A DNA stretch of 64,000 nt from Thermococcus sp. JdFR-02 (GCA_002009975.1 MTLP01000022.1:32001-96000), one strand, 5' to 3'. Counted from the stretch's first letter, positions 1 to 14,997 are shown. Numbers and translations are program-made. The notes: generated by a model from the sequence alone, not told the origin.

Positions 1-19
1 AAAAGATTGGTGGGAGGAG

Positions 20-865
20 ATGCACAGAGAGTATACTTATTTCCGTACATTAATACTCCTTCTGCTATTGATAGTTGTTCTTGCTGTGATTATAGGAGTT
101 ATACTCAAGCAATATCCTACTGCCGGAATTTATCTAAGTGCAACAGGTACCATAACAACAATATTAATGATCATATTCATAGCACTTCAAACTGAGGCTA
201 CTAGGAAATCTGTTGAGGAGATTAGAAAAGACAGGCTCATGCCCGTTATGAAAAAAGTAATTGGTGCTCTTGGCATAACTAAAAAATTAATTATAGAAAA
301 TAAGAATAATCTTAATGAGGGAAACTATTCTATTTATTTAATATCTCCTACGGTATCTACTACGGCACCAACCAAAATATTGAAGGATACCCTTCTCACA
401 ATGGGTGAGGATTATATTGCAACTGTTAAAGCAAATGATTTACTAAAAGAATACGGAGTGGATATAGATAATTATAATAGAGAGATTGTTAATTTGATGA
501 GTATTCTTAGAGAAATAGAATCGGTATTGTTAAGCGATAAAATTCTTCAGATCAAGTTACTGAAAATCCTCAAGAAATGGGAATTAAAAACAAACATTAC
601 GGCTCCAAAACTTGAGACAATAATTAATAATTTTAGCAAACATGACTTTAATAGGAAATGGACTAGTGGGACTCCATATGAAAAATATCTAGAGTTATGG
701 AGAGAATTAAAAGATTTCTTTAACAAGTACTCTGAAGAGAATGAAGAATTGAGAAAACTTCTTAAAAAACGACAAAAATATGTTGGAAGAATAATGGAGC
801 ATTCTGATGAACTCATTGAGAAAATAGGCAAGATAGTAGAGGATATAAGCCGTGATGTCTTGTAA
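20..865 (+). CDS. Hypothetical membrane-anchored protein (2 N-terminal TM helices, helical C-terminus), probable element cargo
   Basis: 281-aa ORF, GGGAGGAG RBS, convergent with the virion operon. Confidence 0.75.
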   Translation: MHREYTYFRTLILLLLLIVVLAVIIGVILKQYPTAGIYLSATGTITTILMIIFIALQTEATRKSVEEIRKDRLMPVMKKVIGALGITKKLIIENKNNLNEGNYSIYLISPTVSTTAPTKILKDTLLTMGEDYIATVKANDLLKEYGVDIDNYNREIVNLMSILREIESVLLSDKILQIKLLKILKKWELKTNITAPKLETIINNFSKHDFNRKWTSGTPYEKYLELWRELKDFFNKYSEENEELRKLLKKRQKYVGRIMEHSDELIEKIGKIVEDISRDVL

Positions 866-936
866 CAGATTATAATATCACCATTTTTCCCTTGTTTCAT
901 CTTTGAATCTTCTTTTGGATCATAACATCACCTCCA

Positions 937-3006
937 TCACGTTTCACGTGAGTAGTTATAGAATAGGTCCCACAGTGTCCAAGCTACTAAAAACACAAAG
1001 AGAACGAATGTTACTCCGCTGTTGGTTAGGTTTGGTTTTTCTCTGAGAATGCCAAGCCACATTGCTTGCATTATTAGTGCAGCACCAATGCCGGAGAGGG
1101 GATTTTGGGTTTGCCAGAGGACCACGATTGTTATCACGAAAATAAATCCTTGTGGGAGTATTAGCTTGATCATGCTGTCTGCTTTGATTGCGTTCACTAC
1201 AGTATCTCCAAAACTTCCGCCTGAGTCTAAAAATGCTTTTGCATATTCATTTATTGGTACTATTGCTTGTGAAAGGTTTTCTGGAATTGTGGGCTTGATT
1301 TCTGGAATTGTACTTGTTGTCTCATTTCCTTGCGGCTCAAGGTAAACGCTTATTGTTAAATCGCTTGTTAGTTCGATGTTTAGTGTTCTGTTTTCATAAT
1401 TTTCTTTTGAGAATGTGAGCGTATAATTTCCCTCAACTAATTGTAGACTTTCTCCAGAATTGAGATAGTTTGTTTCGTTGTTTACAGTGACGCTAACGTT
1501 GTTTAGCATGGTATTATTTGAGGCATCATAAAAATACAGTGTTATTAGTTTTACGTTGTCAAGCATTATATTAGTGAAATTCACTATTATCCCGTTTGCA
1601 TTAATGAGTTTCTGCAATGTAACGCTTTTGTAAAGCTCTTTTTCGAATCTAAAGACATACGTGCCATATTTAACTAAAGCACTATCACCGCTGTTAAAAG
1701 TTCCTAAGAGGGAATTATTCGCATAAACTGTAAAATTATTAATTAGCTGATTATTCACGTCATAAGCATAGAAATAAACCGTATAGCTTTGTCTATCTAA
1801 CGTTAGAGTTAGAGTAGTGTCGCTTTGAACGTCTAAAGTTTGCTGAGCATCAACATAATACTGCTTTTGAGCTAAAAACGTATGAGTGCCTGCAGGTATT
1901 ATAACACTATCACCGCTGTTAAAAGTTCCGTAAAAAGTATTATCTATGTAAACATCCACGCCATTGAGAGTATTCCCTAAATCGTCTTTGAAATCAAAAG
2001 TTACTGTAACAGGATTATTCACTTCTTCGGCTCCTATCGTAGTAGAGGGTTCTTGGTCGGTGTATTTGCGGACAAACACGTAATCCATTTGATAATGTTC
2101 TCCAAACTGGAAAAACGTTATCCTCCACCCTTGCACATTCACAGTTGTGGCGTATGAAGTTGTCCACGTTTGTCCACCATATGTTACTTTTCCAATCACT
2201 TCACTACTCTTTAACGTTGTTTCAATTGTGAAAATATCCCCATTTGCTGGTTGAAATGTTGATATTGTATTATAAATGGTATTATCAACTCTCACATTAA
2301 AATCCGCTGAAACTACCTTCTTGTTTGCTCCAATGTTGTATGTTTGATAGCTGTCAGGTGCCGCTCCTACAAAAATACTACCTGCATTAGGATAGTTTGA
2401 CACATGCTTAACTTTTGCTTTTATTATATAGCCATCCGTATTTGGAAATGTCCAGACACTTCTGAAATAATTCCAACCTGTTGAACTATCATAATCAATA
2501 TCCACCCAACTATTTGAGACAGTTGGAGCAGCATCAAGGTTGTACCATTCCCATTTCGTGTTATCAAACGTATTAAAATCATCAAAAAACTCAAAAACTG
2601 CATTCCCATCACTTGCATCTGTCGCTTGTGAGTTCCCATAGTAAAGATAAATTGTAGTGCTTCCTCCTGCTAGAATTGAGGGCACTTTAACCCAAATTAT
2701 AGCTTGTTGGTTTGTAGCATCCCAAGACTCTATATAATAGTTTAAGGGATTTCCTTGTGCGTCTGCAAATCTTATATCACTTCCATCAGCGTTTACTTTG
2801 TTCCAACTGTCAAAGTTTGTTGAATCTAGAGTTACCTTTACTTGAAAATCTGTTAAATCATACGCGTTATTATTTGTAATTGTTATCTCTCTCCTATAAA
2901 GCCAATTACTATAAACACTCGCCCAAGGATCGTTAGTGTTTGCTTGAATTAATGGGATTAAGCTTGATAACACTAAAAACAAGATAAGAAGTGAGAGCTT
3001 GCGCAT
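937..3006 (-). CDS. DUF2341-domain surface/virion protein with three PEGA-like repeats and C-terminal TM helices
   Basis: Signal peptide; WLYRREITI..DFQVKV..DGSDIRF..LNYYIESW..IWVKVP..TIYLYYGN pattern; ~75-aa repeats (GTFNSGDS, GTFNSGDS, YLNSGES); GAGGTGA RBS. Confidence 0.85.
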   Translation of the reverse strand: MRKLSLLILFLVLSSLIPLIQANTNDPWASVYSNWLYRREITITNNNAYDLTDFQVKVTLDSTNFDSWNKVNADGSDIRFADAQGNPLNYYIESWDATNQQAIIWVKVPSILAGGSTTIYLYYGNSQATDASDGNAVFEFFDDFNTFDNTKWEWYNLDAAPTVSNSWVDIDYDSSTGWNYFRSVWTFPNTDGYIIKAKVKHVSNYPNAGSIFVGAAPDSYQTYNIGANKKVVSADFNVRVDNTIYNTISTFQPANGDIFTIETTLKSSEVIGKVTYGGQTWTTSYATTVNVQGWRITFFQFGEHYQMDYVFVRKYTDQEPSTTIGAEEVNNPVTVTFDFKDDLGNTLNGVDVYIDNTFYGTFNSGDSVIIPAGTHTFLAQKQYYVDAQQTLDVQSDTTLTLTLDRQSYTVYFYAYDVNNQLINNFTVYANNSLLGTFNSGDSALVKYGTYVFRFEKELYKSVTLQKLINANGIIVNFTNIMLDNVKLITLYFYDASNNTMLNNVSVTVNNETNYLNSGESLQLVEGNYTLTFSKENYENRTLNIELTSDLTISVYLEPQGNETTSTIPEIKPTIPENLSQAIVPINEYAKAFLDSGGSFGDTVVNAIKADSMIKLILPQGFIFVITIVVLWQTQNPLSGIGAALIMQAMWLGILREKPNLTNSGVTFVLFVFLVAWTLWDLFYNYSRET
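1680..1929. repeat. Perfect 25-bp direct repeat (1680-1704, 1905-1929), period 225 bp
   Basis: CACTATCACCGCTGTTAAAAGTTCC occurs twice; encodes GTFNSGDS in adjacent domain repeats. Confidence 0.9.
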
Positions 3007-3012
3007 GAGTTA

Positions 3013-3168
3013 TCACCTCAGTACACCAATTTTTGTAAGAATTTTCTCTATTCTACTAACACTCTTCAAAATTTCTTCATTGTTATGTGCAAGTTTTTTG
3101 ATTCTTTTAAGCTCGAACTCGAGTGCAATTTTTTGAGTTTCGTCAATTCTCCTAACAATTGGTAGCAT
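3013..3168 (-). CDS. Small 51-aa coiled-coil protein (not in ORF track)
   Basis: MLPIVRRIDETQKIALEFELKRIKKLAHNNEEILKSVSRIEKILTKIGVLR; ATG abuts the upstream TAA and its end overlaps the next gene's RBS. Confidence 0.7.
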   Translation of the reverse strand: MLPIVRRIDETQKIALEFELKRIKKLAHNNEEILKSVSRIEKILTKIGVLR

Positions 3169-3516
3169 TTATAACAACCTCCCCCATGCTATTGAGATCA
3201 TTACAATTATGTAACTCAAGTATGTGATTACTCTAAGAGCCCAAGCCCATGTCTCATCTACTCCAAGAGCTCGCCAGAGGTGATAGTTACCTCCAATGAT
3301 ATTAGAGAGAAGTGTTTTTACAACATCATATGCTCCCCAAGGTGTGGGTGTGTCTGGATTGATATTCTCAATTTTCTCAAGTGTTTGTTGCAGCTCTGGT
3401 TGCTCGTTTAGGTTGATATAAGAAAAGTCTGGATATACTGATCCAACTATGGCAATTGCAATGTTTAATATAAATATAAAATACATGAAGTTTAATCCAG
3501 CATTTGTTAATCCCAT
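3169..3516 (-). CDS. Small membrane protein (2 TM), putative virion component
   Basis: 115 aa, hydrophobic N- and C-termini, GAGGTGA RBS. Confidence 0.75.
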   Translation of the reverse strand: MGLTNAGLNFMYFIFILNIAIAIVGSVYPDFSYINLNEQPELQQTLEKIENINPDTPTPWGAYDVVKTLLSNIIGGNYHLWRALGVDETWAWALRVITYLSYIIVMISIAWGRLL

Positions 3517-3520
3517 TTTC

Positions 3521-5515
3521 TCACCTCGATTCTCCTCTATATATTATCAAGCTAAGGATCGAAATTCCCATGAGGCTTGAGAGTAGCCATGCTGGAGTGT
3601 CAATTATTCCAGAAATCTTCCCAATTCCAAGAATAAACGTGGCGATAAGTGGAGAAATGAATTTAAATCGTGCTGGTGCTATTAAAAGTCCACCGATGCC
3701 AAAAATTCCTATAAGTGCAGCAACTGGAAATACGGTGTTAGAAGTTTTCGATGTTCCTAACGCTTCATTTACCCAAACTCCCCAAGTTTTCTCAAACCCA
3801 TTATCTCCTTTTATTTCAATGTATGCAAAATCAGCATCTTCTGGAGGGATAAATGAACCTATATAATATCTTGAGTATTCGGTAATGTTGTAAGTTGTAA
3901 TTGTTTGTCCTTGCCTTGAGAATGTTATTTTTAGATTAAAGTAGTTTGTTGCATTTAAATCGTCAACAAACTCAATTTTAACAACTTTTGATTCTGCATC
4001 CCACCAAGCATCAGCATAAAGCCCACCTCTTTCTTCTATGGATGAGCTTAGTAATATTGTGATACCTTCTCCACTAAAAGTGAACCATGCTGCTGCTCTT
4101 GTAATGTTGTTTGAATCTGTGAATTTAATGTAATATTTTCCTCCAAGGACACCAAGAACCGTATTTGTTGATTTTGCAGTATCAGCATAGACTATCTGTC
4201 CTTTAGTATTTTTGATTGTTAGAGTTCCTGCTTCAACTGGAATTATTGAAATGCTTTCAATTACTCCGCTTGCATCAGAGGAAAGAAATGCAATATCTGA
4301 TTCTAAAGCGTTAACAATGTAAATTGAGCTTACACCTCCAGCGCTTAAAACTACTTTATATGTACCATTAGGAGCATCGTAAATCTTGTTTGAGCCGTAC
4401 CAGTCATAGTAAGCTAGTAACGTATCATTTGCATCATAAAAGCTAACTGTCGTTGGAACTGGAAGGTGAGTTCCACCATCTGGATAGACCTTGTAGATAG
4501 TGCCATTTATGTTTATGCTGAAGCTTTCTGTTCCTTCAATGTTTAGGATGTAATCCTCACTTATGAATGAATTAAAAACAACCAATTCATCTATAATTGT
4601 ACCTGTTGTGTTTGAGATGTCTCCAATTTTTGAGAGTGTGAAGTTTCCTTGCCAGTTAAATCGTATGATGCTTTGATTTAGAATAATGTATCCATATCCT
4701 GCTTTCCATCCAAATGCTGCCTGAACATAAGCTCCAATTGTTGGTGTTATTCCGTCTAAAATGTATGTATTACCATTGCTATCCTGGACATAAAGATACC
4801 CATTTGAGTTTATTCCTAAGTTGTCAAGAATTCTAATGTCTTTTGTGCCATCCCACTTAAGCCAGAACTTTAAAGCTCCCTCTGTAAGATTGTATATTTG
4901 ATTCAAGTAAATCTCGGTTCTATTGAGGAGAAAGCCTTGGATAGTGTTATCAGCACCAGGTGGAATATATTTCAGCTCTGTAAGTTTTGATTTTATTCCA
5001 ACATTGTCATTGGTGAAGTAGATATACATTGCATCAAATGTTGTATAGAAGTCACCTTGAGCAAGTGTTCCTGATCTGTATGCTTCAATTGTAATTGTAA
5101 AGGAACTGCCATAAATATCGAATAATTGTTGGATATCCTCATGATATTCGGTGTATTGAGATCCTTCGTTTATTTGATCACTTACTCCGGTCCATACAAC
5201 ATTGCCGTTCACTTTGACTCTGATATTGTATGTTACTCCCTCAAGAGTTCCATCACTATCATCTACCAGATAAGCATGCCACTTTAATCTAAATCCTGCG
5301 AGATATTTCTGATCTCCCAAATCAACATATATTGTTTTCAAGACTTTCCAGGATCCACTTTCATCCACTGTATGTGTTATTGATATGGTTGTGTTATCAC
5401 TTGTAAGTGTGAAGCCTTCAAAGCTCAAATATTCAATCTGTTCTGCTCTAACTTTTTGTGTAATTAATGAGAGTGAAATGAGAAAAATGAAAAATAAAGA
5501 TAAAGATTTGTACAT
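3521..5515 (-). CDS. Large beta-rich surface/virion protein with concanavalin A/LamG-like domain and 3 C-terminal TM helices
   Basis: Start reassigned to MYKSLSL (GAGGTGA RBS, signal peptide); GALKFWLKW...GTIIDELVVFN LamG-like motifs; many N-x-S/T sequons. Confidence 0.8.
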   Translation of the reverse strand: MYKSLSLFFIFLISLSLITQKVRAEQIEYLSFEGFTLTSDNTTISITHTVDESGSWKVLKTIYVDLGDQKYLAGFRLKWHAYLVDDSDGTLEGVTYNIRVKVNGNVVWTGVSDQINEGSQYTEYHEDIQQLFDIYGSSFTITIEAYRSGTLAQGDFYTTFDAMYIYFTNDNVGIKSKLTELKYIPPGADNTIQGFLLNRTEIYLNQIYNLTEGALKFWLKWDGTKDIRILDNLGINSNGYLYVQDSNGNTYILDGITPTIGAYVQAAFGWKAGYGYIILNQSIIRFNWQGNFTLSKIGDISNTTGTIIDELVVFNSFISEDYILNIEGTESFSININGTIYKVYPDGGTHLPVPTTVSFYDANDTLLAYYDWYGSNKIYDAPNGTYKVVLSAGGVSSIYIVNALESDIAFLSSDASGVIESISIIPVEAGTLTIKNTKGQIVYADTAKSTNTVLGVLGGKYYIKFTDSNNITRAAAWFTFSGEGITILLSSSIEERGGLYADAWWDAESKVVKIEFVDDLNATNYFNLKITFSRQGQTITTYNITEYSRYYIGSFIPPEDADFAYIEIKGDNGFEKTWGVWVNEALGTSKTSNTVFPVAALIGIFGIGGLLIAPARFKFISPLIATFILGIGKISGIIDTPAWLLSSLMGISILSLIIYRGESR

Positions 5516-5525
5516 TGTTCTCACC

Positions 5526-5786
5526 TCACATGACTTTTCTTTGTTGACTCTCTGCATAGAATGCTGCTACCAATATTGCAATGAATGTTCCGAAAATCAG
5601 CACTAAAGGTGTCTGGTGCCAGAGAGTGAGAAAATAGCTAACTAAAGGAGCTGTCAATGGATTAGCCATTGCAACATCAATGATTGGAATCTTAATTAAC
5701 CCAAGAACTACTGAGAGCACTGAAAATACAAAGATTATTATAAAGATAAAGATCAAACCAAGAAATGATTCTCTAAAATAGCCCAC
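5526..5786 (-). CDS. 86-aa two-helix hydrophobic protein (minor capsid-like)
   Basis: GTG start after GGAGGGG RBS; two long hydrophobic segments. Confidence 0.7.
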   Translation of the reverse strand: MGYFRESFLGLIFIFIIIFVFSVLSVVLGLIKIPIIDVAMANPLTAPLVSYFLTLWHQTPLVLIFGTFIAILVAAFYAESQQRKVM

Positions 5787-7701
5787 GCTTACCCCTCCTG
5801 CTTTTTTTAGGAGAAGGTAAAATTGTTGATGGCTTAAACTTTGGAAGAACAAAGATTTTATTCTTGTTTAGTCGCTTGGACTTCTTCCACCATGCTGAAT
5901 CATAAAAACCTAAAATAGCAACCTCTCCTTTTGGAAATCTTGGCTTTCTACGTACTCTTGTTTTAGCGAGTCTTGTTAATAAAACACTTGCAGAAGCTAT
6001 TAGCGCTACTTTTTGTGAAATTAGTTCCTTTTTCATACTTTGCTTTGATAAAATCATTTGAGGTATATTTGTTTCTTGAATTGTTCTTGTTTTCTCAATT
6101 ATTTCTTGCTCTTGTTTTATTCTTTGCTCTGGTTTGTTTATGAGAATTTTTTCCTTTTTAGATGATAACTTAAACATATTTTTATTGATTTCATATATGC
6201 TTGGCTCAACTTTGTATGTGGATCTTATTTGCTCTTTGCCTTGTCTGCCTTGTATAATGCTACTAGTCACTTCTTGCTCTTGTATATCCTTAATTTCAGG
6301 AATAATTCCAATTATCAAATTATCTTCATCTTCTTTGAAGCGTATTCTTTGAAACATTGGAGAAAGAGTAGCTCCAGCACCAATCACAGCAGTAGAGATG
6401 CTAATTTTTTGAACACCCCTTTTCATGAGCTGAGTTGCGACGTTTATATCTTGTTTTGCTTTTTCTACAAGAATTGTTTGTGGGATAATTGCAGCACCTC
6501 TACGGATTTTGAAAAAGCTTAGTTTACCTGTTGCATCTCTTGCATACCATCCAGAATGAACAACTTTATCTCCCTCTTTTAGCAACCATTCTGTTATCCC
6601 ACCTTTACTGTAAACTTCAATTGATTTTGTACCTTTTTGGATAAGCATGTATCCTTTTTGTGGGTCAATAATTAGCTTTTGTGTTGGTTCTGGACCAGAG
6701 AACACTTTCTCCCAAGGAGGAAGTCTTGGTCCTCCTTTGTTAATATTCACGTTTTTCGCTTGTATCACATTGTTTACTCTAGAGCTGCTTATGAGTGCTG
6801 AGAATGCTCCACCAGCCAATAATCCACCAGCTACTTCACCAAAAAGCTCTCCACTATAAAAGCTTTGTATGAATCCTTCTTTTATTGCTTTTCTGTTTAT
6901 CCAAATCTTTGGTGCTTGTGTTAAGAGTATTGGAATTTCTATAGGCAACATAAAGAATCCTATTGCACCTTGAACGATGTCTTTTCCGGTTTCTTTCACA
7001 GCCCAAGTAGCTCTAGAATCACCTGTATATGGTGTGTTCTCTATTCCAAAACTCTCAATAACGAACTGTGTTGGTGAGAATATCCAGTTCTCTGCTTGCT
7101 TGTTTCTCTGTAACTCTTCAAATGACATTGTTTGTGTTCCAATTAAGAAATCTGACTTATTCTGCTCAAACAAGCTTTGGTCATTGTTAAGCCCTAAAAA
7201 CTCTCTAGTTTTGTATATTCCTCTGTAGTATGCATCCATTCCTCTAAATAACTGCTCTTCTTTTGTTTTGTCGCCGAGTGAATGAGATTTTCCTGAAAGG
7301 TCATCTTCTTCTTGAACATTAGTATTTTTCTCACTTTTTACAGGAACCCTTTTATTGACTGCCACAAAACCGGTATCACTAACAAATCTATCTCTCTTTT
7401 GAGTTTCTATAAGCAACTTAGCTTTAAATAATGCCTCATTTGCTTGTTTTTCAACATATTGGTTAGATCTTTTTTCAAGCTGTATCTCATAGTGATCTCC
7501 CCTATCTATTGCACCTTTAAAAATAGCTATATCTCTCTTATACTTTTCCACAATCTCCTCTCTTGGTGGTTCTGCTTGTGCATAATCGTAATTCTCGATT
7601 GGGTGAGATAAATTAACTGTTATGTTGTATTCTGGATTATAATAAACATATCTTGTTTGTCCGTTTTTTGTTTTTGTAGTTCCAACAAAGATCAGTGCCA
7701 T
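5773..7701 (-). CDS. 642-aa hypothetical viral protein with central Gly-rich hydrophobic segments and basic C-terminus
   Basis: Long ORF; TAATG coupling to the ATPase gene. Confidence 0.8.
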   Translation of the reverse strand: MALIFVGTTKTKNGQTRYVYYNPEYNITVNLSHPIENYDYAQAEPPREEIVEKYKRDIAIFKGAIDRGDHYEIQLEKRSNQYVEKQANEALFKAKLLIETQKRDRFVSDTGFVAVNKRVPVKSEKNTNVQEEDDLSGKSHSLGDKTKEEQLFRGMDAYYRGIYKTREFLGLNNDQSLFEQNKSDFLIGTQTMSFEELQRNKQAENWIFSPTQFVIESFGIENTPYTGDSRATWAVKETGKDIVQGAIGFFMLPIEIPILLTQAPKIWINRKAIKEGFIQSFYSGELFGEVAGGLLAGGAFSALISSSRVNNVIQAKNVNINKGGPRLPPWEKVFSGPEPTQKLIIDPQKGYMLIQKGTKSIEVYSKGGITEWLLKEGDKVVHSGWYARDATGKLSFFKIRRGAAIIPQTILVEKAKQDINVATQLMKRGVQKISISTAVIGAGATLSPMFQRIRFKEDEDNLIIGIIPEIKDIQEQEVTSSIIQGRQGKEQIRSTYKVEPSIYEINKNMFKLSSKKEKILINKPEQRIKQEQEIIEKTRTIQETNIPQMILSKQSMKKELISQKVALIASASVLLTRLAKTRVRRKPRFPKGEVAILGFYDSAWWKKSKRLNKNKIFVLPKFKPSTILPSPKKSRRGKRGLF

Positions 7702-8465
7702 TATCTCACCACCTGTTCAAGGAGTAGATCTAAGTCAATACCGTCGATCTTCTCGCTTATTTCATCAAATGCGTTTGCAATGCCAAGCTTTTTGATGATT
7801 TTTTCTCCTATATGACCTGCAAATGCCCTTACATGTGCGTTCTTTAGCCTTCTATATTCTTCTTCATCATTTGGAGCTGAAAACTTGAAATTCATTGTTG
7901 GAACAATGCCGCTTCTTGCGATTATCTGAGAAAAGCTTACTATTTTTCCAGATTTCTTCAGTTGTGTTGTTGCTTTTAGCAAAGCCCAAAGTCTTGGAGG
8001 AATCCATGCTCCTGCATACCCTCTACGGTAAACGTGAACTAAAATATCTGTACGTCTGTGGAGAACATCTAATTCCCAAAATGCAGGAGTACAAAATATA
8101 AAGACTTGTTTTAGTGCTCCAATTGACTTTAGAGCTTCATCAAAGAGTATGTTTTGTGAGCTCATTGCTCTTCTATGATGTAAAACGTTCTGAGCCTCGT
8201 CAATGATATGAACAGTTCCTGCTGGCGTTTGTTTTTGACTCTTTAAGCGCCTAAACATTATTGCAACGTCTGCAACTGTAAAGTAGACATTGTTTTCAAG
8301 CTCAAATCTCGCTCCATAGCTGTCTCTTAGATAATAAGCAATAGCCCTTGCGAGTGCAGATTTTCCAGTTCTTTCTCTCCCATCAACTAGAATGACAAGA
8401 TCCTCTTGTTCCTTCATTGCAACTTTAAATGCTCTACCTATCATCTCGAAGAACTTATTCGCCAT
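7701..8465 (-). CDS. P-loop ATPase (putative genome packaging/extrusion ATPase)
   Basis: Walker A GRERTGKS, Walker B HIIDEAQ; start set at MANKFF. Confidence 0.85.
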   Translation of the reverse strand: MANKFFEMIGRAFKVAMKEQEDLVILVDGRERTGKSALARAIAYYLRDSYGARFELENNVYFTVADVAIMFRRLKSQKQTPAGTVHIIDEAQNVLHHRRAMSSQNILFDEALKSIGALKQVFIFCTPAFWELDVLHRRTDILVHVYRRGYAGAWIPPRLWALLKATTQLKKSGKIVSFSQIIARSGIVPTMNFKFSAPNDEEEYRRLKNAHVRAFAGHIGEKIIKKLGIANAFDEISEKIDGIDLDLLLEQVVR

Positions 8466-8910
8466 TTTCTTCTTCCTCCACTGAGAGGGTTTGTGGGATT
8501 TCAAGCTGCATTATGTCTAATAGTCCATGTTTAACTGCAAACTTAACAAGAGCCTCAGCGACAATAATGAGGACATTTGCTTTGACATCCAAGGATATCT
8601 GCTCAGGCTTGAGTTCGAAACTCTTGAGGTGCTTGTAAATCTCGAACGCCTTTTTTTCCTTCTTATTTAATTCATCTGATTTTATCTTTGGCTCAATGAG
8701 TGTAAAAACCTCATCAATACTTGTTTGAAGATTTTGGAAGAGTTTAATATCAAATTTCCCATTAATATATTTTGATCTAAACTGAGCTAAAGAGGAATTT
8801 AAATCTAAAAGAGAAAAAGTCATGTAGAGGCGAAAAGCCTCATGGGGTCTTGCCATATCTTTTTTTATTGCTTGAGCTTCGTATTCAAAGAAGACATCTA
8901 ATTTTGTCAT
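8455..8910 (-). CDS. Hypothetical helical protein (151 aa)
   Basis: ATGA overlap with upstream gene. Confidence 0.75.
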   Translation of the reverse strand: MTKLDVFFEYEAQAIKKDMARPHEAFRLYMTFSLLDLNSSLAQFRSKYINGKFDIKLFQNLQTSIDEVFTLIEPKIKSDELNKKEKKAFEIYKHLKSFELKPEQISLDVKANVLIIVAEALVKFAVKHGLLDIMQLEIPQTLSVEEEENGE

Positions 8911-9803
8911 ATCTTGACCACCTTTGTGGTGTTTTGTATTGTTTGATCGGCTAAGTGTCTAAGCAGTTCTGGAGAGATTTCAACATTCACTTGCGGTGGT
9001 TTTCCAAAACTCTTTAACATCATTATTGCAAATGCAAGACCAACAAGAACCAAGAATACCGCAAATGCGAATTTTACAATGTCGCTCTTGAGGACTGAGC
9101 TCATTTGTAGTGCGTATAAGTCCATATTTCCAGTAACTTTTGGAGCGCTTGCTCCATGTGAGTACTCTCCTATTAGGTTTAGATCAAGTTGTCTGACAAC
9201 AAGAACTTGTCTGTTAGTCTTGAGCTCCTCAAGTTGCATATTTTCCTTTACTTCAACTACTTGTGCATTCTTGTCAACAAAAGCCCTCATTTCCTGTTCT
9301 GTCCGCTTTAACTCATCATTAAGTGCTTTTAATGTTGCTTCAGCTTCTTTGAGTTTCTTTTCGTCCTGTATCTTACTCATTGAGTTTAACAACTTATTGT
9401 AGTCGTAGTTCAGCTCAAGATACTTTTTAATCAAATCATCTCTTCCAAGCTCTTTGAGAGCTGTTAAAATTGCCCACATGCTTGGATGTATTGAAGTACC
9501 ATATTCAACACTTAGTATGTAGAGTGGTTTACCCCAAAGGTATGTCTTGTGAGCAGGATTAACAATGAAATTGAGCTTTGATTTTCCAACCTTTATCCTT
9601 AGAATGTTTCCAATAATATCTTTAGTATAGCCAAATTTTGTTATTGCACCGTGCAGGATGTAAAAACTACCTGGTCCTGGAATCCTTCCTTTAATGACAG
9701 TTCCACCAAGAGCAAGAGCAATTATTGAGACTGTTGTTAGTACTGAAATTGTCATTATCATCATTATAAGGAATGTTGAACTGACAACAACAGGTACGCC
9801 CAT
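8907..9803 (-). CDS. Membrane protein with central coiled coil (298 aa)
   Basis: N- and C-terminal TM segments; KKLKEAEATLKALNDELKRTEQEM coiled coil. Confidence 0.8.
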   Translation of the reverse strand: MGVPVVVSSTFLIMMIMTISVLTTVSIIALALGGTVIKGRIPGPGSFYILHGAITKFGYTKDIIGNILRIKVGKSKLNFIVNPAHKTYLWGKPLYILSVEYGTSIHPSMWAILTALKELGRDDLIKKYLELNYDYNKLLNSMSKIQDEKKLKEAEATLKALNDELKRTEQEMRAFVDKNAQVVEVKENMQLEELKTNRQVLVVRQLDLNLIGEYSHGASAPKVTGNMDLYALQMSSVLKSDIVKFAFAVFLVLVGLAFAIMMLKSFGKPPQVNVEISPELLRHLADQTIQNTTKVVKI

Positions 9804-10276
9804 TAGTACTCACCCCCAAATGGGAAAAACTTTCTTCTCCTTGGTAATTGAGGGATATTTGCCTGATAACTAATGACTTTCGAGATTTGACTTATTTTAT
9901 CCAATAGATGTCCGCTCTTTGCTCTTGAGAGATGAGCATTAACATAAATCTTAAGCATCTCAAAGTCTTCAATCGTCGCTTTTAGTTCATCTCCCATAAA
10001 TTTTGGAATTTGGAACAGCTCAATGAGTTCTAACTTTGCGAGTGATGCCCTAACCATGCTAATTTCTTTCTCAGAAAAGTTAGCAAGACTTAAACTTGGA
10101 TCCTTTAGCGTTATAAGTTTCTCCAAGCGACTTGGGAAATATCTTTCACTGTCTCTGATCGCATTAATAATAACGTCATTAGTTTCAAAACTTGGTGTTG
10201 CTTTAATTTCAGTTCTAAATTCCTTTAGAACGTCATCCAATGGATTTAATTGTGGATATTCATTAAATTCATTCAC
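9803..10276 (-). CDS. Hypothetical protein (157 aa)
   Basis: GAGGTGA RBS; TAATG coupling. Confidence 0.75.
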   Translation of the reverse strand: MNEFNEYPQLNPLDDVLKEFRTEIKATPSFETNDVIINAIRDSERYFPSRLEKLITLKDPSLSLANFSEKEISMVRASLAKLELIELFQIPKFMGDELKATIEDFEMLKIYVNAHLSRAKSGHLLDKISQISKVISYQANIPQLPRRRKFFPFGGEY

Positions 10277-10583
10277 CTCTACCCCTCCTGAAAGTGTTTA
10301 CCCAATTTTGATCTAAGAAAACTCCAACCGTGTAAACAAGTCCAGCTATGAATGCACCCCACCACATAAATGCCAGTCCCCATTCATTTCCTTCAAGCTG
10401 AAGAACACTTCCAGAATCCGTTATTACGTTTAAATCAAAGCTATAAATTCCAGCAATTAAAAAAAGTGCACTCCCCACTGCAATTAGGAGTGGATTATCA
10501 CCATTCGCTCCAGCAATATACATTGCTGCTGCAATTACGAGTACTACTAAGTATATTTCCAACAGCATAGTATCCCACCTCAA
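10269..10583 (-). CDS. Small 3-TM membrane protein
   Basis: Three hydrophobic segments; directly follows the capsid-like gene. Confidence 0.75.
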   Translation of the reverse strand: MRWDTMLLEIYLVVLVIAAAMYIAGANGDNPLLIAVGSALFLIAGIYSFDLNVITDSGSVLQLEGNEWGLAFMWWGAFIAGLVYTVGVFLDQNWVNTFRRGRGE

Positions 10584-10604
10584 AAATAAATTGAAGAAAA
10601 AGGA

Positions 10605-11015
10605 TCAGCCTCTACCTATAAAAGCGTAAACTGCACCTATGAGCATTCCAAATACTGATACTAATATTGTCAGACCCCATGCCTCGAAACCTTGTCCTGT
10701 ATAGCTAAGGAAATTTTGATACGGTGTATAGAAAGTGCTATTTGCTGAAATCTTTGCAGAAACTGTTGGTTCGACTTGTGCTACAACCATAATTGCAATG
10801 AAAGCTGTAATAAAAACTGCTGCTAATGCTGCACCAACTCTTGGATCTAATGAACCTCTTCTCCTTGCGAAATTTATTTCCCAAGGCATGATGACTGGTG
10901 TTCTTTGCTTTTCAAGTTTCTCAAGCCTACTTAGTGCCTTTGCCTGTGCCTTCTCTAACCCTACTACCACAAAACTCAAAACAAGCAAAATTGGCGTCGG
11001 TAGTTTAAACTTCAC
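10605..11015 (-). CDS. Putative major capsid protein precursor (spindle-virus-type two hydrophobic helices)
   Basis: First gene of operon, strong GAGGAGGTGG RBS, U-rich tract after stop; RRRG followed by helix - loop with N-S-T sequon - helix, as in SSV1 VP1-like proteins. Confidence 0.65.
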   Translation of the reverse strand: MKFKLPTPILLVLSFVVVGLEKAQAKALSRLEKLEKQRTPVIMPWEINFARRRGSLDPRVGAALAAVFITAFIAIMVVAQVEPTVSAKISANSTFYTPYQNFLSYTGQGFEAWGLTILVSVFGMLIGAVYAFIGRG

Positions 11016-11051
11016 ATGCCCACCTCCTCAAATAGGATTCCAACAGAAAAA

Positions 11052-11236
11052 TTAGCCCCAAATCTTTAAATAACTTAGTCAAACGCTTTCTTTGGGCTAA
11101 AGAAGTCATAACAATGCTTATTATGTTTGTCAAACTTTCTAAATTAAGGCATATAATATAATCTAATTAATATGGTTGGAAAATCTTGCTCACTATGACA
11201 AACAAAAAAGAAAGTGTGTGAGAAAGTTAGACAAGC
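11052..11236 (-). promoter_or_regulatory. Virion-operon promoter region with repeated 11-bp palindrome GTTTGWCAAAC
   Basis: TATA-like element near 11063-11073; copies at 11074-84, 11125-35 (perfect), 11193-203, 11226-36; TTAGCCC...GGGCTAA inverted repeat brackets the TATA. Confidence 0.5.
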
Positions 11237-11514
11237 TCTTCGATTGCCTTGAGTAGAGACTTCTTCGAGTCACTTCTTGTTCTCATCTTCAAAAGAGGAG
11301 CAAGTTTCTCTGGAGGTATCCTAAGTGAAAGAGATAAAACAGCAAGTTCATAGACCTTTGCTCTGTTACTAAGCTCGTATTTTTCCTGTAATCTTTCAAC
11401 TATTTTTCTCAATGTTTCGTTCTCTCTAATATATGTGTAATCGTCTTTTTTCTCTTTGAAATATTTCAGCAATATTATCTTTTGTGCTTGTTCTAACTCT
11501 AACACTTCAGCCAT
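11227..11514 (-). CDS. Small basic protein, possible ribbon-helix-helix regulator
   Basis: YTYIR strand followed by two helices (TLRKIVERLQEKY-ELSNRAKVYELAV); GGTGA RBS. Confidence 0.6.
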   Translation of the reverse strand: MAEVLELEQAQKIILLKYFKEKKDDYTYIRENETLRKIVERLQEKYELSNRAKVYELAVLSLSLRIPPEKLAPLLKMRTRSDSKKSLLKAIEELV

Positions 11515-11525
11515 AATTCTTCACC

Positions 11526-11630
11526 TTATTTTCTTGCCTTTTTCTTTATTGTCCTTCCAAGCCTCAAACCAAGTAGCATTGAAACAATTCCCAATCCAGA
11601 TAAAACTACCATCCAAAAAACCCAACTCAT
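11526..11630 (-). CDS. 34-aa single-TM peptide with basic tail (not in ORF track)
   Basis: MSWVFWMVVLSGLGIVSMLLGLRLGRTIKKKARK; ATGA overlap and GGAGGTGA RBS. Confidence 0.65.
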   Translation of the reverse strand: MSWVFWMVVLSGLGIVSMLLGLRLGRTIKKKARK

Positions 11631-12055
11631 TTTTTCACCTCCTTTGCAGGCTGGAAGCTTCGCCGTTCACGGCGAGGAGGAAAGCTCGTAAAGTTTATCT
11701 TCAGGAGATCCCATCCCAACGAGATCATGCCAACGAGGATTGTTAATAGTCCTATACTAGTGAGTCCAAAACCAACTTTTTCATCCCAACTCATCGGTGG
11801 ACCCTCATCAGAAGCCCAACAACACGTAGGAAATTCCTTATCAGTGAAATTGTGGGCTTCTAAGTACCTATCGACTGCATACATGCAAGTGCCTCCACAA
11901 GCAACCCTTATTCCAAGCTCTTTTTCAGCCCATTCAATTGCCTTGTATGTATTTTGAACACAGAGAGGAGGTTCCGCATGCTCTAGGATAACCCACCCTA
12001 CTACGAATAACAAAATCCCTATGCCGAGGACTACGAGATCCTCTTTGTATGTCAT
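11627..12055 (-). CDS. 2-TM protein with Cys-rich loop
   Basis: 5 Cys (C..CGGTC..CCW) between two TM helices; ATGA overlap with integrase stop. Confidence 0.7.
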   Translation of the reverse strand: MTYKEDLVVLGIGILLFVVGWVILEHAEPPLCVQNTYKAIEWAEKELGIRVACGGTCMYAVDRYLEAHNFTDKEFPTCCWASDEGPPMSWDEKVGFGLTSIGLLTILVGMISLGWDLLKINFTSFPPRRERRSFQPAKEVKK

Positions 12056-12885
12056 TCCTCCAACACCTCTTTTAGCTTATCAACAACGCGAGAATAAGCC
12101 GTATCGGCTTTTTTCATCAAATCGAGATAGTGCTTCTCAAGAACAGAGCGTGAAACTCTGCTATGAATAAAGTTCACAAGATATCCGTCAATATAATCAA
12201 TGAGAAAATTAGTGTGCCATTTCCTTATCGTTGAGGGATTAACGCGCCCATAGTGGAGCTTCTTGTTAATCGTATCGTACTTCACATTTACTTGGCTTAA
12301 CTCATGTACAAGCTCCGCTGGAAAGTATACGAAAAAGGCTGCTTTCGTGCCTTTTCTCCCCATGAGTGGATACTTCGCCGCTTTGCCAAAAACAATGACT
12401 TTTGAAGCATCGTAGTTTGTGAGCATGTCATGAACAGCTGAGAGCCTCGCTCCGCTATAAACAAGAAGCTTGAAGAAAAGCAAAGTATCTACATCTGCAT
12501 GCTTCTTGAAGTACTCATAAGCCTCTCTGAGCTCTTCAATTGAGATGTAGATTTCTCTTTTACCAGTTTGCTTGATTTTGATAATCTCTTTCAACTGCTC
12601 GTGCTCTTCCCTTGTAATCACGTTTATCTCTTTCAAGAAGTGTATGAAATTTCTAAGTGCCTTGCAGAGGTTACGCTTGTAGTTTTCCTTGATTAATGCT
12701 TTTTGCAAGTCTTCATAGCTGTGTACCTTGTACTTAGCAAAAAATCTCTCAAGTGCTCTTAAGTAGTCTTTCGCTGTCTTTGCGGCTACTTTTTGTGAGA
12801 GCCATTCGCCAAATTGCTCCTTATATTTATTCCACCACTCCTGCCACGCCGCGGGCCCGGGTTCAAATCCCGGCCACCGCACCAC
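12052..12885 (-). CDS. int: SSV-type tyrosine integrase, C-terminal fragment Int(C)
   Basis: First residues VRWPGFEPGPAAWQ are the reverse complement of the tRNA att; catalytic motifs YSGAR, IRKWH, FIHSR, KHY. Confidence 0.92.
   Translation of the reverse strand: MVRWPGFEPGPAAWQEWWNKYKEQFGEWLSQKVAAKTAKDYLRALERFFAKYKVHSYEDLQKALIKENYKRNLCKALRNFIHFLKEINVITREEHEQLKEIIKIKQTGKREIYISIEELREAYEYFKKHADVDTLLFFKLLVYSGARLSAVHDMLTNYDASKVIVFGKAAKYPLMGRKGTKAAFFVYFPAELVHELSQVNVKYDTINKKLHYGRVNPSTIRKWHTNFLIDYIDGYLVNFIHSRVSRSVLEKHYLDLMKKADTAYSRVVDKLKEVLEE
12840..12884 (+). repeat. attR: 3' half of tRNA-Gly(GCC), anticodon loop through CCA
   Basis: CCTGCCACGCCGCGGGCCCGGGTTCAAATCCCGGCCACCGCACCA; no 5' half upstream. 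Confidence 0.92.
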
Positions 12886-13247
12886 AACTCATTCTTAGAA
12901 GCTTCTTCAATCTCTTCTTGGGATAAGTGCTCTTTTAGAAATCTGTTGGTCAATCTGAATAAGCTGTACTCTTTGTTGAGAACCTTTTCTACATCAACAT
13001 TTTTGAAATTGTTAGTAGAGCCCTATACTTCCTTTTCAAAGATCTTTAAGAGTTTTCCACACTTAAACTAGATATATCAGCCAATGATTGAGATTAAACT
13101 CCAATCGTTGGAATGTCAAGTTCAAGCCTCTAATTCCGAAGTTGAAGCCTACTATAAACGAGAAGAAGTATAAGATCAAACTATCCTAAACGATATAAAT
13201 GACAAAATCTAACATTTAACTAAGAATCACTTGGAGGGTATTAACAA

Positions 13248-13661
13248 ATGACCATTTTTGCCCCTTCCATTGCAAAGATATTATCTAAAATCTCCACCAA
13301 TGTATGGAACAAAATTGTTATGGATGAGCTAGAATTCAAACTCAGAGATCAACTTAAAAGATATGGATTTGGCAAGTTTGCCACTCTAATGATTGCTATA
13401 GGTTTAAACGATTATCAGTTTAAAGAACCGGCGGAAAGGGTCTATTGGTCCGAGATACATGAAATAATAAAAAACAAATCTGTTCCTAAAACTACAAAAG
13501 AATTAGAAGAGTTATTAGCTCCTTTCTACGAGAATAAACGATTACACAGGATCAAAATCAAGAGATTACAAAAATTTCTCAATAGTTGTATAACATATAT
13601 TTCTGGAATTCAAGTCCATCCGAAGTTAGTAGAAACTTTAGGTTATGATACAATACCATAA
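13248..13661 (+). pseudogene. C-terminally truncated AGOG-like N-glycosylase/DNA lyase
   Basis: IGLNDYQ..AE..YW...NKRL..IKIKRL..FL resembles the AGOG N-terminal half; HhH/catalytic half absent; GGAGGG RBS. Confidence 0.55.
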
Positions 13662-13673
13662 GGAGAGTTGTAA

Positions 13674-14654
13674 ATGGGCTTAAAGAGTCTTCATGCCAAT
13701 TTGCAAAATGAACTTGTTAAAATAGGTAATAAATTTGGATTCTTAGCTACAAAAGAGTATCATCTAAAAAATCTTTATCCAAGATACTCACCAATAGTCG
13801 ATGTAGTCTGGTTCTATCAACTCTCAGAAGAACAGTCATTAGCAATAAGCAAAGTATATGATTTATGGCGTTATTGGAAAGGTTCAAGAGCATTGTATCC
13901 ATATGTAGCCTTTGAAATTACATCTTTAGATGCCACCTCAAAGACAATCATGAGTGAAATCTGGAATCTAAAGCTTGCTGGGTTCAGATATTCTTTTAAT
14001 GTTGTTCCTAGTAAAAATCCAAAACATCCAGATTACATGCACAAAGAGAGAGCTGAAAGAATAGCTAGGACATTAAAACATTTTTCTGGAGTGAGTGATG
14101 CTTTTGTTGTTTCAATAGAAGAGCTTAAAGAAGCCATTTATAATATGAAAAGTTCTCCTATCAAGGTATTATCTACAAGGAAACCAACATTATTCAAAAT
14201 TCCACATTTGAGAGATAATCTCCACAATAACATAATACACAAGTTAGCAGAATTCGGAAAAAAACATGGTTTCATCCCTATGGTTGAGTACACTCCAAGC
14301 TGGCTCAAAAAGTTTGAGAAGAGAGCAACTTTTATTCGGCATGATGTTGTATGGCTCCTAGAATTGCCTGTTGATACTGAGATTCAGTTTAAGGAGTTCT
14401 TAAGATTTCTGGGGATTAATCCAGTTAGAGACGTTAATCCTATTGAAGTACTAGCTTTTGAAGTTGAATTAGGAGCTTTTAATAAGCACAGCATCGGCAG
14501 TGTTCTCAATCTTGCCAGAATATCCAGAAGAGGTGTTTTAGTAATAGAGAATAAAAAGCCCAATCTTACGGAGACTGTAAGGCTTATCTCATCCAACAGA
14601 GTAGATGTAAAGAGTGTTACTGAATTTAAAGAGCTGTTTAAGAATCTAAAGTAA
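13674..14654 (+). CDS. Protein with two tandem restriction-endonuclease-like (PD-(D/E)xK) domains
   Basis: Internal duplication: LH..L...G.K.GF....EY...DVVW...AFE(IT/VE)...NL occurs twice. Confidence 0.65.
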   Translation: MGLKSLHANLQNELVKIGNKFGFLATKEYHLKNLYPRYSPIVDVVWFYQLSEEQSLAISKVYDLWRYWKGSRALYPYVAFEITSLDATSKTIMSEIWNLKLAGFRYSFNVVPSKNPKHPDYMHKERAERIARTLKHFSGVSDAFVVSIEELKEAIYNMKSSPIKVLSTRKPTLFKIPHLRDNLHNNIIHKLAEFGKKHGFIPMVEYTPSWLKKFEKRATFIRHDVVWLLELPVDTEIQFKEFLRFLGINPVRDVNPIEVLAFEVELGAFNKHSIGSVLNLARISRRGVLVIENKKPNLTETVRLISSNRVDVKSVTEFKELFKNLK

Positions 14655-14997
14655 CAATCATAAAGTTTTTTACCAAGTTTAAAAATTAAAAGAAGAGAAA
14701 ACATTCCTAACTCCACTATTTTAAGAGTTTTTAATGTCATCAATTATCTTCTGAGTAAGTTCTATCTGCCTGTACTTCAAGATCATAGATAGTACTATTC
14801 CAATGTTACCTTAAGTAAAATGTTCCGAACTCAAGTAGAGCTATGATTGCATTAACCAAACTCTCATATATACTCAATAACCTAGCCTAGTAAACTCATG
14901 ATTTTAAACCATTTAACAATTAGGAGATTCTGTCCACCATTTTCGAATCAATCTGTTAAAAACATCCTTAAAACAGAAAAGGAAAAATCAAAAGTAA

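Follow-up and report, generated by a model that had tools for sequence, protein, structure and literature searches.

A probable 23.7-kb TPV1-type provirus at tRNA-Gly(GCC) in an uncultured archaeon of the Thermococcus family

The integrated element and its attachment sites

A 64,000-nt stretch of DNA from Thermococcus sp. JdFR-02 (GCA_002009975.1 MTLP01000022.1:32001-96000, which corresponds to contig C7:32001-96000), referred to here as the window, was found to hold the right-hand part of an integrated element whose genes resemble those of Thermococcus prieurii virus 1 (TPV1), a spindle-shaped virus. The source assembly is 2.36 Mb in 44 contigs, with 99.99% completeness and 1.76% contamination. 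In an order-level search the host genome was the sole member of its genus, and 96 of the order's 98 other genomes fell in the same family. Positions are counted from the first nucleotide of the window unless a contig or locus is named.

On the right, the element ends at attR (12840..12885, + strand), whose 46 bp exactly match the 3′ part of tRNA-Gly(GCC). The intact tRNA-Gly(GCC) lies upstream of the window on the same contig (locus L010, 5114-5191), and attL is found within it at C7:21147-21192 (L010 5147-5192). The two repeats are identical at 46 of 46 positions and were the one exact pair found by a scripted repeat search. Each comprises the last 45 nt of the tRNA, beginning 3 nt ahead of the anticodon, plus 1 nt. 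The unit between the repeats measures 23,693 bp, with 12.9 kb on the right inside the window and 10.9 kb continuing to the left of it. Contig C7 crosses both junctions and carries host genes on either side. The G+C content of the element is 37.2%, compared to 38.1% for the genome.

A preliminary description of the window had placed a provirus at 937..12884. The provirus itself stands, but its left boundary does not, since the gene at 20..865 (+) and 10.9 kb further left also belong to it. The tRNA-Gly 3′ half overlapped by an integrase C-fragment, on which that description was based, is present with a repeat that is exact over 46 bp. The intact tRNA-Gly(GCC), second att copy, N-terminal integrase fragment and replication gene (an MCM helicase) that had been predicted to lie upstream were all located on contig C7.

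An empty version of the site is provided by genome G015, in which tRNA-Arg(GCG), tRNA-Gly(GCC) and MTAP are adjacent and about 150 nt separate tRNA-Gly from MTAP. Here, tRNA-Gly(GCC) and MTAP are parted by the element and a 2.1-kb segment of low G+C. The approximately 16 nt that follow the tRNA in four relatives look like the flank of attR and unlike the flank of attL.

The split integrase

The C-terminal integrase fragment, Int(C) (12052..12885, −; 277 aa), reads out of attR and belongs to an SSV-type "suicidal" tyrosine integrase. It matched Pfam Phage_integr_3 (PF16795) at 1.8e-40 and PHROG 5127, "integrase", at 1.2e-47. Its counterpart, Int(N) (C7:21100-21399, equal to L010 5100-5399, −; 99 aa), adjoins the intact tRNA and has an RHH/CcdA-like N-terminus. 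The tRNA-encoded peptide VRWPGFEPGPAAWQ ends Int(N) and opens Int(C), and joining the ends of the element in silico gave one open integrase frame of 346 aa. When the rejoined integrase was compared to that of TPV1 (318 aa), 290 aa could be aligned with 42% identity (E 2e-70); the TPV1 enzyme is without the extra RHH-like N-terminus. Arg, Lys, Arg and Tyr positions, which we take to be the catalytic residues of the SSV1 integrase, are conserved in the alignment with the TPV1 and SSV1 integrases.

The catalytic domain of the SSV-type suicidal integrases of the Int(pT26-2) group was found, together with their att arrangement, in which the site lies inside int and the gene is divided into Int(N) and Int(C) between direct repeats. 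In suicidal integrases, the gene is split upon integration (PMC7253208). SSV1 integrates by the same mechanism, with att inside int and a tRNA target, and in both integrases the T-arm of the tRNA is read as PGFEPG. The identity of Int(C) to the pT26-2 integrase t26-1p (42.4%) is close to that to the TPV1 integrase (42.9%). In a plasmid collection, Int(C) matched pT26-2, pGE2 and pTN3 at 42%, 34% and 24% identity, respectively. Only a small set of genes is common to the element and pT26-2, the integrase among them, and the integrase is therefore best seen as a shared, exchangeable part, as described for the Int(pT26-2) group by Badel et al. (2020; PMC7253208).

A possible remnant of Int(N) to the right of attR was considered and rejected. 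A 55-aa frame there matched residues 23-53 of the TPV1 integrase, but what matched there is sequence derived from the tRNA, and TPV1 reads this segment in a different frame.

Four further SSV-type integrase matches were seen in the genome (C14:17931-26540, C9:79975-94859, C19:1709-2194 and C11:39203-39691). For two of them, direct repeats derived from tRNA genes enclose an element, which measures about 8.5 kb at tRNA-Tyr(GTA) on C14 and about 14.8 kb at tRNA-Gly(TCC) on C9. No TPV1-type capsid or ATPase gene was found in the four loci, and these two genes gave one match each in the genome.

Genes of the virion module

The module that runs from Int(C) to the second of two adhesins is encoded on the minus strand, and 11 of its 13 genes match TPV1, with PHROG families assigned to the virion genes at 1e-59 to 1e-158. 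The coupled operon proposed in the preliminary description was borne out, as every protein it named was found in its place, in genes that are packed tightly or overlap.

Next to Int(C) is the gene for a 142-aa membrane protein (11627..12055, −) with no relative in TPV1, PAV1, pT26-2 or SSV1. A 95-aa soluble helical protein follows (11227..11514, −), with 53% identity to an unannotated TPV1 frame and 58% to a sister provirus in genome G045, which is described below. The candidate major capsid protein, 136 aa as listed (10605..11015, −), is a homologue of TPV1 gp15 with 50-62% identity. It is followed by homologues of gp16, a 104-aa membrane protein with three hydrophobic segments (10269..10583, −); gp17, a 157-aa protein with 60% identity (9803..10276, −); gp18, a 298-aa membrane protein with a hydrophobic helix at each end and a charged, coiled-coil-like center, with 63-65% identity (8907..9803, −); and gp19, a 151-aa protein with 73% identity (8455..8910, −). 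The gp20 homologue is an AAA+ (P-loop, Walker-type) ATPase of 267 aa with 75.7% identity (7701..8504, −), and its true start is likely an ATG 13 codons inside the listed TTG start. The position of gp21 is held by a 642-aa orphan (5773..7701, −), whose only relative is a stretch of PAV1 ORF898. Beyond it lie a 108-aa two-helix membrane protein (5526..5852, −; 67% identity to an unannotated TPV1 frame), a "ConA1"-type adhesin of 678 aa that is a homologue of TPV1 gp22 and PAV1 ORF676 (3521..5557, −), a 115-aa membrane protein (3169..3516, −; 68% identity to an unannotated TPV1 frame) and a "ConA2"-type adhesin of 689 aa (937..3006, −) with a signal peptide, DUF2341, PEGA-like repeats and a C-terminal membrane anchor.

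The 136-aa protein was aligned with TPV1 gp15, which is presumably the capsid protein of TPV1, with the G045 homologue and with two metagenomic proteins. The five sequences vary at the N-terminus, all have the motif RRGSLDPRVG unchanged, and their last 80 residues, which are hydrophobic, are conserved. Hydropathy indicated helices at about residues 60-78 and 115-133, and the AF2 model placed helices at 58-88 and 96-134 with a mean pLDDT of 63.6. A small, hydrophobic, alpha-helical hairpin homologous to the TPV1 capsid protein is thereby predicted, with the model at modest confidence. Capsid proteins of this kind have been described for Thermococcales spindle-shaped viruses (PMC12934983), and the 136-aa protein is a candidate for the same type. 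A PDB sequence search with it gave nothing meaningful. The family is small, as a profile search of 1.84 billion representatives returned five proteins at E<=1e-3, of which three scored below 1e-30.

ConA1 shares 42-51% identity with TPV1 gp22 and 24% with PAV1 ORF676 over 462 aa. Its AF2 model (pLDDT 75.7) opens with a signal or anchor helix at the N-terminus. An all-beta ectodomain of about 550 residues, made up of several beta-sandwich/jelly-roll domains, comes next, and three membrane helices close the protein. With this model, Foldseek found the tail-tip proteins of phages lambda and T1 (E 1e-8 to 1e-5, low global TM) and, in the same E range, the lectin-like receptor-binding domains of several unrelated proteins. 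As judged from the predicted structure, the resemblance is one of fold, typical of receptor-binding proteins, and nothing beyond. Ten relatives of ConA1 were found at E<=1e-5, and a Thermococcus prieurii contig of 558 kb carries one of these. ConA2 matched Pfam DUF2341 at 2.1e-32 and contains PEGA domains. Its likeness to TPV1 gp23 is confined to the last 210 aa or so (48% identity); the N-terminal two-thirds of gp23 differ, and the DUF2341 and PEGA domains stand there in ConA2. Two membrane-anchored lectin-domain proteins have been described for the group, with ConA1 conserved and ConA2 variable (PMC12934983), and the same pair was found here.

When the ATPase and the 678-aa protein were searched against a phage collection with tblastn, the only matches were TPV1 (75.7% and 51.3%, respectively) and, weakly, PAV1. 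Neither the ATPase nor ConA1 matched anything in the plasmid collection that contains pT26-2, pGE2 and pTN3. A search for loci related to that of the ATPase gave TPV1 alone among viral contigs and two metagenome-assembled contigs among genome contigs. The ATPase is remotely like the B251/DnaA-like ATPase of fuselloviruses and SSV1 (PHROG 5484 at 1.5e-7; pairwise E 0.037), and no match to it was found in a PDB sequence search.

The 642-aa protein is 24% identical to PAV1 ORF898 over 198 aa and stands where TPV1 carries an unrelated protein, gp21. A search of 5.8 billion proteins returned only the protein itself, a protein atlas gave nothing above 0.79 (pLDDT of its own model, 0.42), and no family was assigned to it by Pfam, NCBIfam or PADLOC.

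The left half and its accessory genes

The left half, which lies outside the window, is the replication and regulation half. Its genes encode two nucleases, one RecB-like and one resolvase-like, as well as a zinc-finger protein, two AbrB regulators and an MCM helicase, and an accessory cassette is also found there. The MCM protein (929 aa; NCBIfam MCM 2.4e-210) begins with about 235 extra residues, which all four Pfam domains of MCM follow, and an N-terminal extension of about 200 aa has been described for the MCMs of Thermococcales viruses (PMC12934983). Where the element has this single gene, TPV1 has gp01 and gp02.

The accessory region (C7:29173-32865) encodes a 256-aa and a 281-aa membrane protein, a 156-aa protein and an SDH-type protease; TPV1 is without it and has gp24 and gp25 in its place. 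The 281-aa protein (20..865, +), the product of the last gene of the cassette, has two N-terminal membrane helices and a helical tail, and it is a distant paralogue of the 256-aa protein (34% identity over 70 aa). The protease is a Clp-fold serine protease (C7:30513-31424, equal to L010 14513-15424, −; Pfam 3.4e-20, NCBIfam 2.3e-23). It is 73% identical to a protein of the G045 provirus and 34-40% identical to accessory genes of temperate Gordonia, Shewanella and Porphyromonas phages. Possible roles for it include capsid-protein processing, exclusion and defense. PADLOC matched none of the 10 accessory and flank proteins examined, the protease included.

Comparison with known viruses and plasmids

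Thirty open reading frames were taken as genes of the element, and tblastn matches were counted at E<=1e-3. On this basis 20 of the 30 genes matched TPV1 (NC_016899), 6 matched pT26-2, 2 matched Pyrococcus abyssi virus 1 (PAV1, NC_009597) and 1, the integrase, matched Sulfolobus spindle-shaped virus 1 (SSV1, Fuselloviridae). Three of the 20 TPV1 matches fall in frames that are unannotated in the TPV1 record. Every TPV1-homologous gene is full length and without stops.

The matches are collinear with the TPV1 map opened at int. On the right, the order is Int(C), the homologues of gp15, gp16, gp17, gp18, gp19 and gp20, the gene at the gp21 position, and the homologues of gp22 and gp23. The left part continues with the accessory region and, on the other strand, the gp26 nuclease, gp27 zinc finger and gp28 AbrB. 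The far left holds the MCM helicase (gp02), gp05, the resolvase-like nuclease (gp06), a winged-helix protein and Int(N). The AAA+ ATPase, ConA1, RecB-like nuclease (58-62% identity to TPV1), zinc-finger protein, AbrB, MCM-type helicase and SSV-type integrase are thus all shared with TPV1, whose genome measures 21.6 kb compared to 23.7 kb here. The structural and assembly operon of the TPV1 type ("Sethviridae") is therefore present in TPV1 order, with its AAA+ ATPase.

The two PAV1 matches are ConA1 and the 642-aa protein. PAV1 is episomal and without an integrase (PMC3603647). The VP1/VP3-type capsid protein and core genes that define Fuselloviridae in the strict sense were not found in the element, which matched that family through the integrase alone. 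The pT26-2 matches comprise the integrase, the resolvase-like nuclease (t26-28p region), a 105-aa protein (t26-29p region), two AbrB proteins (t26-20p region) and a repeat domain, the last being 76 aa of the DUF2341 protein within t26-5p. The core genes of the pT26-2 family, which we take to include the large membrane proteins t26-5p and t26-6p, ATPases and others, were not found as a set.

Relatives and earlier descriptions

A sister provirus was found in G045, a genome of another genus, at C10:294472-319616. It measures 25.1 kb, lies in tRNA-Gly(TCC) within a 598-kb contig and has the same layout, with Int(N), a replication half, accessory genes, a virion operon and Int(C) in turn. Its identities to the present element are 73% for the SDH-type protease, 74% for the ATPase and 56% for the integrase. 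No match to our MCM was found within the G045 stretch, and no homologues of the 642-, 256-, 156- and 281-aa genes were detected there at E<=1e-5. The att site of TPV1 is 95.6% identical over 45 nt to the tRNA-Gly(CCC) of the genome studied here. TPV1 thus has a tRNA-Gly(CCC)-like att, read in another frame, where the present element has that of tRNA-Gly(GCC).

Relatives are rare within the order. ATPase matches at E<=1e-10 were obtained in 7 of the 99 genomes, this one included, and homologues with at least 74% identity were present in only 2 of the 98 others, G045 and G098. The copy in G098 contains two stops, and the contig that carries it is short. To our knowledge, PAV1 and TPV1 are the only Thermococcales viruses that have been isolated.

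Integrated elements of this kind have been described. Badel et al. (2020; PMC7253208) listed 8 virus-type elements among 47 mobile genetic elements with this type of integrase, and they defined the integrated "fuselloviruses" of Thermococcales by the TPV1-type capsid gene. Those elements are of the same kind as the present one, with split SSV-type integrases in tRNA genes and tRNA-Gly among the targets. The same paper described changes of target between related tRNA genes (PMC7253208). In a 2026 preprint, 620 viral genomes of Thermococcales were reported and divided among 19 candidate families, and TPV1 was placed in "Sethviridae" (PMC12934983). The suggestion in the preliminary description that the provirus was possibly new was thus overstated, since integrated TPV1-type viruses are already catalogued (PMC7253208, PMC12934983).

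Read depth and CRISPR spacers

Four public sequencing runs from four studies hold the sequence, two of them possibly the source, and these were examined as Logan contigs (k=31). The sequence of the element was present at at least 99% identity in contigs of all four runs. In run X1, the depth was 86.9 for the contig of the element (window 1-11678), 85.6 for a flank contig and 164.4 for the 46-bp att unitig. These depths agree with a single integrated copy, although depths taken from contigs are weak evidence, and rare excision remains compatible with them.

One other contig of run X1 was noted at 12856-12894. It is 2455 nt long, has a depth of 9.2 compared to about 86 for the genome, and leads from the att core into sequence like that on the Int(N) side. 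Either an attP-type junction or the attL of a related, rarer strain could explain it.

The genome has five CRISPR arrays with 82 spacers in total (C5, C7:109195-112180, C8, C10 and C13), and the largest, with 45 repeats, is on the contig of the element. None of the 82 spacers matched the element, TPV1, PAV1 or the G045 element, and the longest exact run was 15 nt.

Interpretation

The exact att pair, the split integrase and a TPV1 gene set in TPV1 order support the original proposal of a spindle-shaped-virus provirus at tRNA-Gly(GCC). The region is very probably the right 12.9 kb of a complete 23.7-kb provirus that belongs with TPV1 (candidate "Sethviridae") among the temperate spindle-shaped viruses of Thermococcales and has entered tRNA-Gly(GCC) of an uncultured archaeon in the Thermococcus family. 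The provirus is closely related to TPV1 and a well-preserved addition to a described virus group, not a new kind of element. Since all of the conserved genes are intact, it also looks competent, as far as sequence can indicate.

Several results weigh against this interpretation. Ten of the 30 genes had no TPV1 match, and BLASTP gave no significant similarity between the 642-aa protein and TPV1 gp21. The assignment of the capsid candidate is based on homology to TPV1 gp15 and a predicted helical hairpin. Comparison with hhalign showed no similarity of this protein to PAV1 ORF121 or SSV1 VP3; the probability for VP3 was 0.1%, from a shallow alignment of five sequences with which remote homology is still possible. 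Foldseek searches of its model against PDB and BFVD gave no hit at E<=0.001. The integrated state rests on contig C7 of a metagenome assembly, and no excision or circle junctions were seen in the contigs of the public runs, which break at the 46-bp repeat.

The alternative that fares best is a TPV1-type provirus that has become locked in, that is, one that is cryptic or domesticated and past excising or making virions. Its integrase gene is split by integration (PMC7253208), and an unrelated orphan gene sits at the gp21 position. Equal depths of provirus and flank in run X1 give no sign of extra episomal copies; TPV1, by contrast, is reported as high-copy circular DNA (PMC8371274). Decay is not what the genes suggest, however, since the att repeats agree at all 46 positions, the rejoined integrase is open with its catalytic positions aligned and the TPV1-homologous genes are all full length and free of stops. 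Furthermore, the sequence recurs at at least 99% identity in contigs of four runs from four studies. We consider a locked-in provirus unlikely, though an explanation to be taken seriously.

Another possible explanation is that the integration is an artifact of assembly, in which a free episome was threaded into the chromosome through the 46 bp common to attP and the tRNA gene. The assembly is a metagenomic one of 44 contigs, and all k=31 contigs break at the repeat, so that the graph is the same for the integrated and free forms. Contig C7 nevertheless spans both junctions with host genes on each side, and depths as close as 86.9 and 85.6 would be a coincidence for an episome. In addition, the G045 sister has the same split-integrase configuration inside a 598-kb contig. 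An artifact is therefore very improbable. The weakest alternative, an integrated plasmid of the pT26-2 family, would account for the integrase type (as similar to Int(C) as that of TPV1, at 42.4% compared to 42.9%), the tRNA-gene integration, the large membrane proteins and ATPase and the five further matching genes, but it is rejected with near certainty because 6 of the 30 genes match pT26-2 and 20 match TPV1, with one repeat domain as the only pT26-2 match in the virion module and nothing like the ATPase or ConA1 in the whole plasmid collection, pT26-2, pGE2 and pTN3 included.

As the sequence shows, att is located inside int, and recombination at the last 45 nt of the tRNA gene split int into Int(N), which stayed beside the intact tRNA, and Int(C), with the exact 46-bp repeats as a result. 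The rest of the life cycle of the TPV1-type provirus can be proposed by analogy with TPV1 and SSV1. Excision would rejoin the integrase gene on a circular episome, which the MCM would replicate. Because the integrase gene is broken while integrated, excision would need a residual episome or an integrase supplied in trans. The hydrophobic hairpin protein would build a spindle-shaped shell at the membrane, the two lectin-fold proteins would bind glycans of the host surface and virions would leave without lysis.

More tentatively, the provirus may be an intact, inducible TPV1-type virus of an uncultured, single-species Thermococcaceae genus without a known virus, from a lineage that moved through all three glycine isoacceptor genes while swapping the gp21-position protein and the outer ConA2. 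This fuller proposal is possible, but we would not favor it at present. If it is true, isoacceptors would be exchanged through small changes of the att segment inside the virus's own integrase gene (GCC here, CCC-like in TPV1 and TCC in G045), and the gp21-position protein and the outer part of the second adhesin would be host-range parts.

TPV1 capsid relatives and close ATPase homologues are very rare, and a complete provirus is therefore valuable as a reference. With both junctions present, it provides a clean reference genome for the TPV1 group, a defined attP/attB pair for tRNA-Gly(GCC) and a three-way comparison (GCC, CCC and TCC) of how suicidal integrases change targets. The type of element, the integration mechanism and the modular variation (MCM extension, variable ConA2) are as already described (PMC7253208, PMC12934983).

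Additional observations

The 2.1-kb segment between attR and MTAP (12886-14997) has a G+C content of 33% and is absent from the equivalent site in G015. Two proteins are encoded in it. One, of 137 aa, is similar to AGOG N-glycosylase in the N-terminal third of that enzyme only; the other, of 326 aa, is built of two similar halves. The gene for the latter has 82% DNA identity to a copy in G012, a genome of another genus, and a 72% identical paralogue in another integrated element of the same genome (C9:88916-89138). An older insertion at this tRNA may have left the segment as a remnant.

Within the virion module, a 66-nt fragment of a dispersed, high-GC repeat was found at 11625..11690 (−). It ends in GGAGGTGA, a Shine-Dalgarno sequence, and the ATG of an open reading frame of less than 40 aa. 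The element is a GC-rich hairpin, and a host copy with 94% identity (C2:102018-102081) lies between the fumarase alpha and beta genes, with the element placed at C2:102008-102073 (−). With a covariance model it was detected in 70 of the order's 99 genomes, and one genome can hold as many as 23 copies. In an alignment of 34 copies, 92.7% of cells are paired and six pairs show double changes, and the covariation score was reached by none of 500 shuffles. It was considered as a new RNA motif, but this was rejected because of antisense overlap with HgcC/sot0042-type repeats of Rfam in other genomes. From its sequence, the 66-nt element is part of a known dispersed repeat of Thermococcaceae. It is regularly located directly before start codons, with pairing between anti-Shine-Dalgarno and Shine-Dalgarno sequences.

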